NCBI GenBank assembly: GCA_963811705.1
Contig: CAWESL010000003.1
Span: 57,448 to 121,447, forward strand
DNA length: 64,000 bases
Reading direction: 5' to 3'
DNA from: Ignavibacteriota bacterium
Lineage (GTDB): Bacteria > Bacteroidota > Ignavibacteria > UBA10030 > UBA6906
Shown: in pieces, positions 6,001-12,000 of the stretch
Numbering within the stretch: position 1 is the stretch's first letter
Layout: every line of letters starts with the position of its first letter
Position numbers: made by a program

Positions 6001-9000
6001 CAACTCTTCGAGAAGGTTCCGCCCGAGATTCAGGACAGGAGCATCAGGGACATCCTTCTCCTTGTGACACTTTGCACAGGATGCTTCCATATACGCGCTG
6101 GGAAGAAGCGGCGTGTCCCAATATTTGACGTTCCCGCGGGACTCCCGGTAGTCGGTTGCCGCACCCTGGCCTTCGTGACAGAACGTGCACCCGAAGTCCT
6201 CAACATCATGATAGATTTGCGGATGCGTTCGGAATGGTTCGGGGGAAGATGCCAGGGCGGGTTCTTTCACACCCAGGTGGCAGCTAATGCACCGGTCGAC
6301 ACGGTTCAGCTTCTGCACCCAGATCTGCTTGATCCCGATGGGTGTTGGTTTCACCCGTTCCGGGAGTTGCGTTATCAGCCGGTTGTAGCTGATCTGATAT
6401 TCCTTCCATTCGCGAAAGGAATCCGCAAAAGGCGAGACTGCGAGGACGATGAGGAACACTACGCTCGTGATCGCAAAGTACTTCCTGAGCTTGTCCATCA
6501 GTAGATCTCCTTCCACGGCCACACCCAGCTCCATTCCGGTCCGCGGAAGAGCACTCCAACCGTGGTCAGCACACCGACGACGATGACAAACCACGTCATG
6601 ATCCACCATGACAACGGCCGTGATCCCAGCCACCCGATGAAGCCCGTTTTCTTTTTTACGAAATACGGCACGAGCATGAAGCAGAGCACGACGATGGTCG
6701 GCACCAGCATGACGTAGACGCTATACTTCAAGAGGACGAGAGAAAGAATCCCGACAACGATGAGGATGGCCGTCAATGTCCGTCGCGGAGAATCCTCCCA
6801 GAGTCCCTTTACCATCACATTGATTCGGAAATACGGAATCACGATCAGCGCCACGATCACCAGGCCGGGCAGAATGACCCCCGCGACCACTGGAGGAAAG
6901 TAGTGCAGCAGTTCCTGGAGTCCGAGAAAATACCACGGAGCTTTGGCCGGATTGGGTGTATGCTGGGGGTTGGCAATCCACTCGAGCGGTGCATTGAAGA
7001 AGAGCGAAATGAGAACGAGAACAATCACCATCACTTCGAAGGCAATGACTTCCCGGATCACGAGGTTCGGGACCGTCATGACCATTTCCGTTTCTACACT
7101 TTTGACGCGCGCGGATGTTCGCCCCTTGATGAACGCGATGCGTTTGGGCGTCTTCCTGGCGTCCGATGTCTTCTCAACCTTGAACTCTGATGTCATGGCC
7201 TTTATACTCCTCCGTCCTTCCGGACCCGCCAGAAGTGGACTCCCATCAAAACCATGATCCCTACCGGGAGAATGAAGCAGTGCAGAACGTAGAACCTCAC
7301 GAGGGCGTTGTCGCCCACGATATTTCCTCCCAGAAGGAGATAGGAGATCTTGTCGCCGATCCCGAACGGCACCGCGCGGGCCATATTAGTGCCGACCGAA
7401 ATGCCCCAAAATGCAAGCTGGTCCCACGGCAGGAGATATCCGGTATAGCTCAGAAGAATGGTGATCACGAACAGGATGACGCCGATCATCCAGTTGAATT
7501 CCTTCGGAGGCCGGTAGGCACCGGTATAGAACACCCGCATCATATGGAGAAAGACAATGGCGACCATGGCATGAGCCGCCCAGCGGTGCATGTTCCGCAA
7601 AAACTGTCCTGACGACACCACGAATTGCAGGTCCTTCATATCGCTGTAGGCCTGAGGAACCGACGGCCGATAATACAACATCAGGAGAGCCCCCGTCAGC
7701 GTCAGAACGATGAACAATCCCACGGAGAGCCCTCCAAGACCCCACGTGTACGAGAACCGCAATGCGCCTTTGCGGACCTTGGTCGGGTGGACGTGCAGGA
7801 AGAAATTGTAGAAGACCGACTCTGCACGCGTTCGGTTCGATAATGGAAGACCGTGACGGAAGATGGATCGCCACACCTGTGATCGGACCAGGGCTCCGAG
7901 TTGTTTTTGCACGATACTTCTCCTTCGACTTGCGTTGAGGTGTTGCCTTCGGCGACGAAGGCAGGTCCAACCGGTCAGGCCTTAAGCGTTACATCGTCGC
8001 CGACGATCACGGATTTGTCGACGACGAGTTGTCCCCGGTCATCCAGCGACAGAGCGAACCTCTGCAACCCTTTGGGTGCAGGTCCGGCAATGACTCCCCC
8101 CTCCTTGTTGAACTTGCTCCCATGACAGGGGCACGCGATAATCCCCTCTTGCGGCTTCCAGTTCGTAATGCAGCCGAGGTGCGTGCACACCGCCGAAAGC
8201 GCATAAAAGTTCCCCTCCCTGGCGCGGACAATGAATACCTTTTGTTCCTTGTCGAGGGTGACGCTTCCCGGGGGATAGTCCTCAGGACGTCCGACTTTGA
8301 ACTGCGTCGGAGGTTCCCGCACGACATTGGGGGAAAGATATTGCGCGCTCAGCACGAGGCTGCCGGCGGCCGCAATCCCCACCGCCCCTATCCCCACCAT
8401 CTCGAGGAAATGACGGCGCGAAAAGGAGCCGGTCAGTCCTTGATCGCCTTCCCCTTGGTTCTTCTCTTCAGCTTCCACAAGATCTCCTCTTACGTTATCG
8501 GTAGTGTCTCGGAGACGGAATACTCTTCCATCGTGATGCATCCGACCGGGCACCGTTTGGCGCAGAGACCGCACCGGATGCAGAGGTCTTCATCTTTGAT
8601 CATGACGGATCCGATGGTCCCCTGCGTTTCGCCCTGTATGACGACATCGTACGTTTCAGTCAGTTGCCCGGGCAAGTCTTCACCTGCCGAAATACGATCG
8701 ACAGCGACAAGGTCGATACAACTCTCGGGACAGATATCAACACACCCGCCGCAGAGAATACATTCGCTCCCGGAGTCTTCGCCACCCTCATTGAACACCG
8801 TGTTTTCCCAACAATGAAGACAGCGCGAAGCCTCGCTCCGGGCCTGGTCCTCCGTGTACCCCAGCTCAATCTGCGCGATGCCGATGCGGCGATCGATCGG
8901 GAGACAGGGAATCGGCACCCGTTTCCGCTGTTCGTACTGCCACGGACGGTTGAACCGGAAACTGTCGGCAACAATGATTTCAACATTCCGCTCGTGGAAG

Positions 9001-12000
9001 TGCACCTCCACGTTCTGCGCCGATCCGCCGCTGAGATACCGGTGAATCGACTGCGCCGCCTTCTTCCCGTTCGCGATCGCATCGATGGCATTGCGCGGGC
9101 CAAACGAAACATCACCGCCGGCATAGATACCCGGCGCACTGGTCGCGAGCGTCGCCGAATCCACCTGGATCGTATTGCGCGGGGTCAGGGCAATGCCGTC
9201 TTCGGGGCGGACCCACGTCAAATCGGATGTCTGGCCGATGGCCATGATGATCGTATCGGCTTCTATGATCTCTTCCGATCCGGGGAGAAATTGCGGGTTG
9301 AACTTCCCCGCCGCATCGAACACGGAGAGACATTTGATGGTCTGCAGGCCGGCCACTTTCCCGAATTTTCCGAGAATCTTGCCGGGACCCTTGCGCGTGT
9401 GGATATGGACACGTTCTTCGAGCGCTTCCTCGATCTCCTCTTTTGTCGCAGGCATTTCTTTCCAGTCTTCGAGGCAGACGAGATGGACTTCCTTGGCACC
9501 AAACCGCACGGCCGATCGAGCAACATCCAACGCTTCGGAGACCTCGGTCACATGACCGATGTCGGTCTTCTCCTGTCGCGCCGCCGTCCTGGCAACATCG
9601 ATGGCAACGTTCCCGCCCCCGATCACAAGGACTTTGCCTCCCAGATCCACCTTGAATCCGAGATTGACGTTCAAGAGAAAGTCAACGCCTCGAAGGACTC
9701 CGTCAAACTCAACACCCTCAATGCGCAGGTCGCGGCTTCTGTGCGCACCAATGGCGATGAAAACGGCCTGATATCCTTCCCGCTTCAGATCCGAGAGCGT
9801 AAAATCCCGGCCGACGGCGGAGTTCAGTTTCAGCTCGACACCAAGACTCAGGACGGCGTTGACTTCCAATCTGATCAATTCCCGCGGCAGTCGATATTCC
9901 GGGATCCCCAGACGCAGCATTCCGCCCGCCACCGACTGAGACTCGAACACGGTGACGTCATATCCCAGGAGCGCCAGATCGTGAGCGCATGAAAGCCCGG
10001 CCGGTCCCGCTCCGATGACCGCCGTTTTCTTTCCATTCCGCTTCACGCTTTTCCCGAACACTTCCTTCAGTCGCTCGAGGTCGATCATGCTTTCGACGCC
10101 GTACCGCTCGCAGGCGAAACGCTTCAGCGCTCGTATGGCAATCGGCTGGTCGATCTGGCCGCGTCGACATGCGAGTTCACAAGGGGCCGCACAAATCCGC
10201 CCGCAGATCGAGGCGAACGGATTCGGGCGACGCGCAACGTGGTAGGCCTCCTTGTACCTCCCTTCCTCCACCAATGCCACATACCGTCCTGACTCCGTAT
10301 GCACAGGACAGGCAGACATGCACGGGAAGTTGGAATCCAGCCACTCCAGATCGACAAATTTCAGTTGGTCGGGCATAGCGCTACGGATGTCTTGGTTTTC
10401 CTTTGTGATCCGAGAAATACAAAATCGCCAAGCCTGCAATCGCCAGGCCCGATACGCCGGCGGCAATCGTCGAGAATGCGCCCGGCAAGAGGTACAATTT
10501 GAGTGTCTCCAGTGCTTCGCCCGTCGATCGCGTTTCGATCAACAATGCCAGCAAGCCAAGTACGAGAGCGCACGAGCAAAGCCCGCGCATTGCGGTTTTC
10601 GCTGTACTGTTCATATTGTCCTCCTGCTTGTGTGTGGACGTTGAGACCACTACCGGTGGATGTCGAAGTTCACCGTAGCGTTTCCTTTCTCAGGGACATC
10701 GACACTGACGTCCTGTCCCTTCAACTTTTCATGCCAGATCTTCAACGTATATCTTCCCGCCGGCACGTTCTTAATCGTATAGCTGCCATCGGTCTCGCTT
10801 ACGGCAAAATATGGTGTCTCGACGACAACGACGTAGCCTTCCATTTCCGGATGGACGTTGCACAGCAAAGTCGCCACACATCCGGGCGATTTGAAGGTGT
10901 AGGATTTGATGTGTCCCTTCGGCCAGGACCCCAGATTGAATTTCTCTGAGCATGCATCGGGGGAGAACACGTTGTGCAACACGTTATCACTGTTCAGAAA
11001 ATCCACGGTGGTTCCCACCAGAATGGGAAGGACATGCGGCATGAACATGAGGTTCTTTTGATTCATGACCGCGTGCGCAGCCGGGGGAGGAAAGGTCTTC
11101 GACGGAATCTTGTCGATATAGATGACCGCATCACCGCTGTTCTTGACTCCCTTTGCCGTGATCTTTCCTACAATGTCGCCGGCCAAAGCAAGTTGAGTGC
11201 CGACCAGCACGAATATCGCAGCGATGAGCATTTGCTTCACAGGGTTCTTCTTCATGGGGATCGTTCTTCCATTATGCGTTTTGGATGAGTGAGAAAGTGA
11301 AAACGGTACTATATGCCGACCGCGAGCGCCAGGGCCACCTGTCCCAGCTGCCATTTCGTATCCATCTGTGAATCGAATTTCGTGACCATGGTGCGGAGGG
11401 TGAACTTGACGTTGGGGCGGACGAGGAACACGACACCGGGAACGAATTGCATGTCCGTATATGCCACACTTCCTCCGGTCACGGGGTCAAGCATGTGACT
11501 GTTCCACGATTCAAACCGGAGTCCCGGCAACAACCAGGGAAAGACCGTCATGTCCAGCTCCGTAAACCATACCGTGGAATTGGCCGATTGCGACAGCGGA
11601 TCTCCAAGGAAGGGACGGTCGTCATGGCGCAGGCCGACCCCCCCAAAGAGATTGAACTGCTCATAGAAGGCATTCACGTCGGCGCCGACCATGCTGAAGG
11701 CATTGTCCTGTTGCGCGCTGTCGGGCCCGAGTGTCGCTTTTCCCAGATAGGCGAATGCACCGATCGTGACGGAGTTATCGAAGTAGGGCTTCGCGTTGTT
11801 CGGCGCGTTTCCTGCTTCCACAACCCCGTCGAGGGGGAGTCCACCGAATTTGTAGGTCACGTGCCCATAGTAGTCTTTGTCGGAATGCGGTGCGCCGAAT
11901 CCCTCCACAATCCCGGCGTTCCATCCGAATCGCCCGCCCGCCATGCCGTTGAGCTCGATTCCTTTCTGCGTCTCTTCGATCGTCCAGCCCATATCACCGC

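Follow-up and report, generated by a model that had tools for sequence, protein, structure and literature searches.

A GltD-like flavoprotein encoded within Rieske/cytochrome b operons of non-anammox bacteria and its predicted link to NAD(H)

The subject of this study is a flavoprotein gene embedded among the genes for a Rieske/cytochrome b complex on the minus strand of a 64,000-nucleotide (nt) stretch of DNA, hereafter called the window, from an Ignavibacteriota bacterium (GenBank assembly GCA_963811705.1, contig CAWESL010000003.1). We propose that the 628-amino-acid (aa) product is a cytoplasmic subunit linking this complex to NAD(H), with forward bifurcation as the favoured direction of electron flow, and we hold this reading with slightly more belief than doubt. 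It seems to us quite probable that the flavoprotein genuinely belongs to the complex and is linked to NAD(H), irrespective of the direction in which electrons run; the direction of flow is the weakest step of the argument. The complex as a whole appears to be a variant of a known, functionally unproven complex of anammox bacteria, with an insertion and partner genes of its own, and the mechanism that we outline for it is hypothetical. The literature that we searched holds no description of this operon outside anammox bacteria, and an earlier mention may exist.

The flavoprotein and its anammox relatives

The longest open reading frame (ORF) around the flavoprotein gene spans 8490–10466 and would give 658 aa from a TTG codon, and the ATG at 10376 gives 628 aa. 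Because the 120 closest relatives in the database (74–90% identity) match the shorter product in length (626–634 aa) and share its starting methionine, we consider ATG 10376 to be the supported start; more than 8000 relatives were found there in total. The original prediction for this region had described a protein with two dinucleotide-binding folds and a ferredoxin domain, and Pfam matches together with glycine motifs locate all of these features at 8490–10376 of the minus strand. A Fer4_20 domain (residues 17–91) is followed by a Pyr_redox_2 domain (residues 117–437) containing the dinucleotide motifs GAGPAG (residues 122–127) and GGGNVA (residues 253–258), and the C-terminus is formed by a ferredoxin domain with two CxxCxxCxxxCP motifs (residues 539–613). 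Neither a signal peptide nor a transmembrane (TM) segment is predicted, and the protein is therefore taken to be cytoplasmic.

Two [4Fe-4S] clusters had originally been assigned to this protein. This number proves too low, as four sites of the [4Fe-4S] type are predicted, the Fer4_20 module contributing two more. The ligands of that module are C19, C23, C58, C62, C66, E67 and C70 together with C519 and C522, the last two belonging to an RCLxC motif placed after the flavin domain. Two separate alignments were prepared, one of 31 diverse full-length representatives (38–57% identity) and one of 83 sequences from genome loci, and in both of them the Fer4_20-module ligands, the RCLxC pair and both CxxCxxCxxxC motifs are invariant.

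Similarity to proteins of solved structure lies far beyond chance (down to E 1e-95). The best relatives in the PDB are the large subunits of Bfu-type NfnABC (9bov/9bp5, E 1.9e-95), NfnA (9n5u) and StnC (8oh5), followed by NfnB (5jca_L/4ylf_B), GltD (2vdc_G) and dihydropyrimidine dehydrogenase (1gt8), and the C-terminal domain is matched by FwdF (5t5i). By sequence comparison, then, the nearest relatives of solved structure are GltD-like modules that bind NAD(P)H and contain chains of clusters. Using these same structures, Hauser et al. (2025, PMC12954380) placed four clusters in Kuste4570, the corresponding flavoprotein of the anammox bacterium Kuenenia. The GltD-like modules of GltD, NfnB, NfnABC/StnABC and dihydropyrimidine dehydrogenase (PMC8097209) share with the window protein an adrenodoxin-reductase-like FAD/nucleotide domain and two low-potential [4Fe-4S] sites. 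As in dihydropyrimidine dehydrogenase, the addition of an 8Fe-ferredoxin domain brings the number of clusters in the chain to four, and as in the Bfu-type proteins, an RCLxC pair follows the flavin domain. Unlike these modules, the window flavoprotein has no catalytic partner domain (GltB, DHODH-like, NfnA or HydABC-like), its genomic partner being a membrane Rieske/cytochrome b complex. It further differs in having CLE in place of the YRR 2′-phosphate motif, in carrying an extra inserted helix, and in falling below the cut-off of all equivalog models.

The genomic setting of the gene is strongly conserved. A scan of one genome per species, made with a profile from nine close sequences, yielded at least 573 confirmed relatives, of which the best 80 loci were kept. 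These come from more than ten phyla, with no Brocadiales among them, and include Ignavibacteriota, Bacteroidota, many Acidobacteriota (among them the cultured Geothrix campi, L013), Eisenbacteria, Krumholzibacteriia, Eremiobacterota, Zixibacteria, Glassbacteria, Neomarinimicrobiota, Opitutaceae, Limnocylindrales and Binatia. In every one of these loci with enough sequence, tblastn recovered the order flavoprotein, Rieske protein, cytochrome b, subunit IV-like protein, multihaem cytochrome c and, usually, monohaem cytochrome c. The flavoprotein gene is thus inseparable from the Rieske/cytochrome b genes across phyla. A separate observation concerns one Thermoanaerobaculia locus (L031), in which a second, more distant Rieske/cytochrome b pair (30% and 41% identity) lies at 300–1500, about 7 kb upstream of the flavoprotein operon, and which therefore comes from a genome with multiple Rieske/cytochrome b complexes.

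This setting bears on whether the protein is instead a soluble stand-alone enzyme that is merely co-transcribed, such as GltD, part of an Nfn-type transhydrogenase or a 'formate dehydrogenase beta subunit'. The flavoprotein has no TM segment and is strongly similar to soluble enzymes, and homologues in the JGI database are named 'formate dehydrogenase beta subunit' or 'glutamate synthase beta subunit-like oxidoreductase'. We nevertheless regard this explanation as very improbable. The GltD/GOGAT/AegA/YgfK models of NCBIfam all score far below cut-off (TIGR01317, 223.7 bits against 447.7; TIGR01318, 245.6 against 482.95; TIGR01316, 307.5 against 471.75), no gltB, nfnA or fdhA gene was found in the window or the inspected loci, and the gene sits between the cupredoxin and Rieske genes in the best 80 loci. 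In addition, the Kuenenia homologue is reported to co-migrate with its complex, and an N-terminal extension of cytochrome b co-occurs with the flavoprotein gene. The case that was to have refuted the original prediction, a glutamate-synthase partner acting on its own, is therefore contradicted by synteny, by the model scores and by the lack of a nearby gltB.

Each of the specific identities was also considered and rejected: GltD, on the scores just given and because no GltB-like gene adjoins in the window, L001, L002 or L013; NfnAB or Bfu-type NfnABC, because neither an NfnA-type partner (PyrK-like [2Fe-2S] plus FAD) nor a HydABC-like partner is encoded within or beside the operon; and a formate dehydrogenase beta subunit, because no fdhA occurs in the window or inspected loci.

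Kartal and colleagues are said to have proposed in 2013 that anammox Rieske/cytochrome b complexes transfer electrons to NAD(P). The original prediction suggested an arrangement of this kind for the window, and direct homology of five subunits to a Kuenenia locus now supports it. That locus (L083, from a Kuenenia sp.) was reached by rebuilding the soluble domain of Kuste4569 from the PDB alignment, which led to the Rieske protein P0273 and then to the contig. The window Rieske protein has as its two best PDB matches Kuste4569 (9rk4, E 4.5e-27) and Kustd1480 (9rk3, E 1.6e-23). The locus encodes a Rieske protein, a flavoprotein (581 aa), cytochrome b, a subunit IV-like protein, a hexahaem cytochrome c and an HAO-like protein. 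The window flavoprotein aligns end to end with the Kuste4570 orthologue encoded there (37% identity over 615 aa, E 8e-117), and cytochrome b aligns over its full length (50%, E 4e-87). The Rieske (42%, E 3e-42) and subunit IV-like proteins (33%, E 2e-30) also match, the latter pair having the identical stretch NPAKAPWYFLGLQE in common. The match of the window octahaem cytochrome c to the hexahaem protein (29% over 147 aa, E 3e-8) covers the anchor and first two haem motifs only.

The anammox complexes R/b-3 (Kuste4569-4574) and R/b-2 (Kustd1480-1485) resemble the window complex in several respects. They have a homologous four-cluster flavoprotein, a Rieske protein and a b6-type cytochrome b; their subunit IV-like protein is enlarged to five TM segments and carries the motif APWY (hydropathy predicts four to five segments in the window protein); and a membrane-anchored multihaem cytochrome c replaces cytochrome f or c1. 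As in Kustd1480, the window Rieske protein has a serine hydrogen-bond donor (Ser121 in CPCHGS) and a phenylalanine at position 123. The Rieske potential of Kustd1480 has been measured at +335 mV, and all Kuenenia subunits, the flavoprotein included, are reported to co-migrate, although bifurcation to NAD(P) is still only a proposal in anammox bacteria as well (PMC12954380).

There are also clear differences. The flavoprotein gene lies ahead of the Rieske gene in the window and behind it in Kuenenia. A covalent haem cN has been modelled in both Kuenenia complexes, but the haem-cN cysteine of Kuenenia cytochrome b (WCMGG) is missing from the window protein (WGLGG, Gly58), and Arg511 of Kuste4570 corresponds to glycine in the window flavoprotein. 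At the nucleotide site, Kuenenia has YRR where the window has CLE, and an insertion of 25–70 aa is confined to the window clade. The cytochrome c is octahaem in the window and hexahaem in R/b-3. Kuenenia has an HAO-like partner, whereas the window has none and encodes instead a Cyc2-like porin-cytochrome, a type-1 copper protein and a monohaem cytochrome c. Finally, hosts of window-type operons are non-anammox bacteria that lack an anammoxosome.

The changes at the nucleotide site bear on which substrate, if any, is bound there. The clade-specific insertion directly follows the GGGNVA helix in the nucleotide-binding domain, and both helices that flank it align to one single helix in 9bov, 8oh5, 9n5u and 2vdc. 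Strand beta-2 ends in VCLE in the window protein, with Glu303 present in 82 of 83 sequences, whereas Kuenenia and 8oh5, 4ylf, 9n5u, 9bov and 2vdc have (I/V/L)YRR at this point. Acidic residues in this position classically mark a site for NAD(H) rather than NADP(H). With CLE in place of the NADPH-type YRR, use of NAD(H) is therefore predicted.

The same changes could alternatively mean that the protein is a subunit of the complex with no pyridine nucleotide substrate, its second site being disabled or re-purposed to serve another cytoplasmic acceptor or donor (ferredoxin or flavodoxin, a thiol, O2) or to act as a safety valve for the b haems. NfnII-type relatives with obstructed nucleotide sites are known, and GltD-like clusters are low enough in potential for ferredoxin (PMC8097209), so that both the position of the insertion and the near-universal replacement of YRR could be accommodated. 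Against this stand the invariance of GGGNVA and the surrounding fold elements, the acidic beta-2 residue, which is a sign of NAD(H) binding rather than of decay, and the lack of any ferredoxin or flavodoxin gene conserved in the operon. We therefore think this explanation very improbable.

Operon organization and partner genes

Nine minus-strand genes, running from 12610 down to 4075, are arranged as a single predicted operon, and eight of them are conserved. These genes, and three that lie upstream of them, are listed below in order of transcription, with the three upstream genes last.

11309–12610, minus: Cyc2-like fused monohaem cytochrome-porin, 433 aa, first gene of the operon (Cyc2 sequence signature)
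10650–11255, minus: type-1 copper (cupredoxin) protein, membrane-anchored or secreted, with a C-terminal Ig-like domain, 201 aa from MKKNP (Pfam, invariant ligands)
10381–10614, minus: mini-protein, 77 aa, two hydrophobic segments, lineage-specific accessory ORF (ORF, AGGAGG)
8490–10376, minus: GltD/NfnB-like FAD flavoprotein, 628 aa (Pfam, PDB relatives, conserved cysteine ligands)
7975–8478, minus: Rieske [2Fe-2S] protein, 167 aa, GTG start, twin-arginine SRRHFL, one TM anchor (Pfam Rieske)
7202–7912, minus: cytochrome b, b6 type, 236 aa, four helices, four haem-ligand histidines, N-terminal cytoplasmic extension (Pfam Cytochrome_B)
6498–7196, minus: subunit IV-like membrane protein, 232 aa, four to five TM segments, Qo motif APWY (Pfam Cytochrom_B_C)
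4555–6498, minus: octahaem cytochrome c, membrane-anchored, 647 aa from ATG 6498 (eight CxxCH, N-terminal TM segment)
4075–4530, minus: monohaem class-I cytochrome c, probable lipoprotein, last gene of the operon (Pfam Cytochrome_CBB3 and Cytochrom_C)
12653–13204, minus: single-receiver protein (upstream of operon)
13257–14711, minus: sigma-54-type response regulator (upstream of operon)
14698–17370, minus: sensor histidine kinase (upstream of operon)

Distances between neighbouring genes of the nine-gene run range from an ATGA overlap to 62 nt. The flavoprotein and Rieske genes had been thought to overlap, but the 85-nt overlap arises solely in the maximal Rieske ORF (from GTG 8574) and is an artefact of choosing it. 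The flavoprotein stop codon TAA (8490–8492) is followed by GAGGAGATCTT and then by the Rieske GTG at 8478, the gap between the genes being 11 nt. The Rieske gene has a Shine-Dalgarno-like site. The gene call in the 90%-identical contig L001 agrees with this start. ATG 6498 of the octahaem cytochrome overlaps the stop of the subunit IV-like gene, and L001 carries the same 647-aa gene call.

The core subunits carry the motifs expected of a Rieske/cytochrome b complex. The Rieske protein has CTHLGC and CPCHGSKF, with Ser121 conserved in 81 and Phe123 in 80 of 82 homologues. The Qo stretch of the subunit IV-like protein is NPAKAPWYF, and APWY is found in all 73 homologues; with this Qo motif in a split cytochrome b, the window complex is assigned by sequence to the APWY clade, described as uncharacterized by Kao and Hunte (2014, PMC4122944). 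Eight haem motifs are present in 60 of 70 homologues of the octahaem protein. The monohaem cytochrome, which holds the same position in most loci, has one CxxCH and a lipobox-like LFAGC.

The best PDB match of cytochrome b is cytochrome b6 (E 8.6e-43), and its haem ligands His109, His123, His211 and His226 are invariant. The position that would hold the haem-cN cysteine is occupied across the clade by tyrosine (57 sequences), tryptophan (9), glycine (8) or cysteine (3), out of 78, so that the cysteine is lost in 75 of 78. This loss fits a b6-type Qi site that has been changed or lost, and we suggest that the flavoprotein replaces it. The N-terminal cytoplasmic extension has the pattern [WY][RK]S[IV]FRxG...R, which is conserved in the window clade and in Kuenenia (Ser16 and Arg19 each in 77, Gly21 in 73 and Arg29 in 72 of 78 sequences). 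Nearby, His40 is conserved in 77 of 78 and aligns with His43 of Kuste4571. In AlphaFold3 models of the Kuenenia complex, His43 binds an extra haem b that lies between the cytochrome b monomers, toward the flavoprotein clusters; a haem at His40 would be a proposal by analogy with Kuenenia.

The 2-TM mini-protein that the original prediction placed beside the flavoprotein is a real ORF, although not a conserved component. Its ATG at 10614 is preceded by AGGAGG at a distance of 7 nt, its TAG stop (10381–10383) lies 4 nt before the flavoprotein ATG, and TM segments are predicted at residues 8–26 and 42–60. Homologues were found in L001 (86%) and L003 (about 40%, with a common ETRSTGEALE motif) alone. 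At other loci, the gap between the cupredoxin and flavoprotein genes is mostly shorter than 120 nt, and most have no room for the mini-protein. A role as a core subunit was ruled out by its absence from most loci. We also observe that in L001 the public gene call at 9118–9996 is a single product of 292 aa that joins the cupredoxin to the mini-protein. As in the window, there is a TAG in the canonical frame, and the fusion looks like a frameshift or gene-calling artefact.

The first gene of the operon encodes a 433-aa protein that has no match in Pfam or NCBIfam, and whose 120 closest homologues are all unnamed in public databases. Neither this gene nor that of the cupredoxin figured in the original prediction, and both are part of the conserved operon. 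The Cyc2 signature comprises a signal peptide, a single CXXCH with PXFAR[Q/K][T/Y] upstream and PXL downstream, and a minimum length of 365 aa (Keffer et al. 2021, PMC8406198). The window protein exceeds 365 aa and has a signal peptide and one CXXCH preceded by PAFARKY and followed by PKL, the stretch reading SIPAFARKYKTSCATCHNGFPKL. An AlphaFold2 model has a mean predicted local distance difference test (pLDDT) score of 65.8, with low confidence in the haem domain and values mostly of 60–90 in the barrel (residues 100–432). The porin domain agrees with the 16-strand OprO/OprP-like description, and the model is consistent with an OprP-like barrel. On its sequence signature, we class this protein as a Cyc2-type fused cytochrome-porin, and iron oxidation by it would be a prediction from this class. 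Among the approximately 76 loci with enough flanking sequence, 68 have a neighbouring same-strand ORF with the Cyc2 signature, immediately upstream in 56 and immediately downstream in 12. Cyc2 homologues had already been noticed in Ignavibacteriaceae, Bacteroidetes and Verrucomicrobia, with no description of their neighbours (PMC6344600).

The copper protein matches CarboxypepD_reg and, below threshold, Copper-bind in Pfam, and its Geothrix orthologue scores above the Copper-bind cut-off. The residues His94, Cys132, His135 and Met138 are invariant in all 78 homologues, and in nearly all loci the gene immediately precedes that of the flavoprotein. The architecture, a type-1 copper domain combined with a CarboxypepD_reg-type Ig-like domain and an N-terminal anchor, is unusual. 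In a Neomarinimicrobiota locus (L007), about 4 kb (3538–7849) is inserted between the cupredoxin and flavoprotein genes; within it are genes for a YtkA-like protein, another cupredoxin, a membrane protein of the Fer4_5 (NapH/CcoG-like) type and a COX2-like cupredoxin-cytochrome c fusion.

Four loci (L061, L066, L069 and L076) are without Cyc2-like and copper genes, and two of these (L066 and L069) retain the haem-cN cysteine. In L069, from Zixibacteria, the operon (2210–7795) is preceded by genes for a molybdopterin oxidoreductase, a 4Fe-4S protein, an NrfD protein and a cytochrome c, and in Kuenenia the partner at the locus is an HAO-like octahaem protein. Because partner modules vary by lineage in this manner, the flavoprotein-Rieske/cytochrome b core appears to pair with different periplasmic or outer redox modules, and the gene arrangements suggest that its pairing with periplasmic enzymes is modular.

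The three upstream genes (histidine kinase, sigma-54 response regulator and receiver) precede the operon in L001 in the same order as in the window, and the response regulator has matches upstream of the operon in L005, L006, L008, L011 and L041. A consensus scan for sigma-54 promoters gave no excess (26 matches against 28.7 expected from shuffled sequence), and any regulatory link to these genes is accordingly suggested by position alone. The sole strong terminator-like hairpin (3381–3353) lies past the end of the operon, and scans for sigma-70 promoters and terminators were uninformative within it. A second sigma-54-type activator gene is found downstream of the operon (1907–3346, minus strand).

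Two features elsewhere in the window are recorded here for completeness. A 3089-aa ORF at 33201–42470 (minus strand) combines glucoamylase-like, GH94 supersandwich and GH94 catalytic domains and resembles the giant cyclic beta-1,2-glucan synthase/phosphorylase protein. An ORF at 28696–29784 (minus strand) matches baeRF family 10 and eRF1 domain 3, a domain family that is uncommon in bacteria.

Direction of electron flow

Location signals in the sequences place the Rieske protein, the c cytochromes, the copper protein and the porin on the P-side. In the reading that we favour, the flavoprotein would dock on the N-side of the cytochrome b dimer, probably by way of the conserved N-terminal extension near His40, and electrons would pass through it from haem bN over the four clusters and FAD to NAD(H). 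Oxidation of quinol at Qo would send one electron to the Rieske centre, which is predicted to be of high potential, and from there to the octahaem cytochrome, the monohaem cytochrome, the copper protein and the Cyc2-like porin-cytochrome, or to other high-potential sinks. The other electron would cross the membrane via the b haems and reduce NAD+ instead of quinone at Qi. The reaction would lie close to equilibrium and might be reversible. We favour this forward direction because the flavoprotein gene is obligatory, because the haem-cN cysteine is lost in most members of the clade, and because Ser121 is almost always conserved, as in the high-potential Rieske protein Kustd1480. The periplasmic partners (the HAO-like protein in Kuenenia, the molybdenum enzyme in L069, and Cyc2 with a cupredoxin in the window) resemble terminal electron sinks.

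Several points weigh against this reading. The AlphaFold2 model of the flavoprotein, calculated from a shallow alignment (74–90% identity), has a mean pLDDT of only 40.8 and was not used for fold or geometry. With the insertion found in this clade, the nucleotide site may be altered or blocked. Canonical cytochrome b6 also has a histidine near the position of His40 (in the PPHVN motif), so a conserved His40 does not by itself point to a further haem. Association of the subunits is predicted from gene order and from homology to Kuenenia, for which the mechanism is likewise no more than a proposal. By our own estimate, which follows the scheme in PMC12954380, moving an electron from menaquinone (about −70 mV) to NAD+ (−320 mV) against the membrane potential would require an acceptor of about +330 mV or higher, which is marginal. 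The hosts are for the most part heterotrophs (Ignavibacteriota, Acidobacteriota, Geothrix), for which making NADH from quinol has no evident use. Moreover, GltD-like modules normally pass electrons from NAD(P)H into their partner, which favours the opposite direction (PMC8097209).

As a separate observation on the need for a complex that makes NAD(P)H, adjacent genes for glucose-6-phosphate dehydrogenase and 6-phosphogluconate dehydrogenase are present at 53903–56967 (minus strand) and would therefore provide a conventional source of NADPH.

The main rival to this reading is the same complex operating in reverse, with the flavoprotein as an input module through which NADH would deliver electrons to FAD, the four clusters and haem bN. 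Two routes can be envisaged from there. In the first, quinone would be reduced at an N-side site, which would make the complex a built-in NADH:cytochrome c/cupredoxin reductase with a Q cycle, comparable to the proposed feed of ferredoxin/FNR electrons into the chloroplast b6f complex. In the second, the electrons would return to Qo and be joined by electrons from Fe(II), arriving via Cyc2, the copper protein, the c cytochromes and the Rieske protein, in a confurcation or assisted reverse flow to quinone.

An NADH-input function would accord with the usual role of GltD-like modules, which feed reducing equivalents of NAD(P)H to a partner via low-potential clusters (PMC8097209), and with hosts that are mostly heterotrophic and need to oxidize NADH. 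Cyc2 and cupredoxins are classically tied to Fe(II) oxidation and inward electron flow (PMC8406198, PMC5566968), APWY-type complexes have been suggested to run in reverse (PMC4122944), and movement of electrons from the N-side to the P-side would be favoured by the membrane potential. However, the first route would waste the energy span from NADH to quinone despite the presence of complex I, a point that Hauser et al. likewise argue for Kuenenia, and the second would spend NADH on lifting Fe(II) electrons merely to the level of quinol, with no clear benefit. An ordinary Q cycle needs no feed of NADH, yet the flavoprotein gene is obligatory in every locus, and most members have lost the cysteine that forms part of a b6-type Qi site. 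On balance, we regard reverse operation as a serious possibility but an unlikely one, and retain forward bifurcation as the preferred direction. Reduction of NAD+ by Fe(II) electrons driven through the b haems by the proton-motive force was also considered and rejected, given that movement of electrons from the P-side to the N-side would be opposed by the membrane potential.

A broader and more tentative proposal, which we think doubtful though worth stating, is that the eight conserved genes form a self-contained machine. Such a machine would couple iron, or another extracellular or periplasmic couple of high potential, at the outer membrane to the quinone pool and directly to NAD(H) by quinone-based bifurcation or confurcation, with neither complex I nor a Qi site.

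Related systems and implications

Elements of this arrangement are found in other electron transport systems. In the chloroplast b6f complex with bound FNR, for which a role in cyclic flow is proposed, an N-side flavoprotein could exchange electrons with the N-side haems and the cupredoxin plastocyanin serves as the P-side partner, which is akin to the window arrangement. FNR nonetheless differs in fold from GltD-like proteins and carries no clusters, and canonical b6f complexes have haem cN, cytochrome f and a PEWY motif, whereas the window complex has no haem-cN cysteine, an octahaem cytochrome c and APWY.

The iron oxidation system of Acidithiobacillus ferrooxidans (PMC10654088, PMC5566968) likewise combines Cyc2, a cupredoxin (rusticyanin), c-type cytochromes (cytochromes c4) and a Rieske/cytochrome b complex, with NAD(H) at the far end. 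In the window, by contrast, all parts are encoded in one operon and the complex belongs to a b6-type APWY clade with an octahaem cytochrome c. The window arrangement also differs from the 'uphill' branch through the PetI bc1 complex, in that the link to NAD(H) would be a built-in flavoprotein rather than the quinone pool and a reversed complex I. Iron oxidation by hosts of window-type operons would be a prediction from their genes.

Similarity also extends to the Geobacter Ext cluster (extHIJKLMNOPQS, with the complex ExtOPQS; PMC5877670). On the ExtP model (cut-off 290), the window cytochrome b reaches 275.5 bits. There is also a match between the subunit IV-like protein and ExtQ, and a partial one between the octahaem cytochrome and ExtS. 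Since all scores except that for ExtS fall below cut-off, we consider the window proteins to be relatives and not members of the Ext families. The NCBIfam ExtP profile begins at about residue 33 of the window cytochrome b, which leaves the N-terminal extension outside it. The Geobacter cluster has no flavoprotein gene, and its porin ExtI has no fused haem (PMC5877670). Related octahaem operons, in whose descriptions the flavoprotein is not mentioned, have been noted in Nitrospina and Methylomirabilis.

The findings described above extend a question from anammox bacteria to a much wider set of organisms. Relatives of the anammox NAD(P)-linked complexes are present in hundreds of ordinary genomes from soil, peat, groundwater and sediment, and one carrier, Geothrix campi, is in culture. 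The question raised in 2013, of whether the low-potential electron from quinol can reach NAD(P)+, thus becomes testable beyond the slow-growing anammox bacteria. The changes specific to the clade, namely the NADH-type motif, the loss of haem cN and the inserted helix, offer handles for examining nucleotide use and the Qi site. For homologues of the flavoprotein, the names 'formate dehydrogenase beta subunit' and 'glutamate synthase beta subunit-like' are misleading. Cyc2 is widely used as a marker for Fe(II) oxidation and has been puzzling in heterotrophs, and it is here tied to fixed partners in the periplasm and inner membrane. If the tentative proposal of a self-contained machine is true, the operon would represent an undescribed respiratory or 'uphill' pathway distributed widely across Acidobacteriota, Ignavibacteriota and eight or more further phyla, and its complex would be the first inner-membrane partner to be specifically linked to Cyc2.

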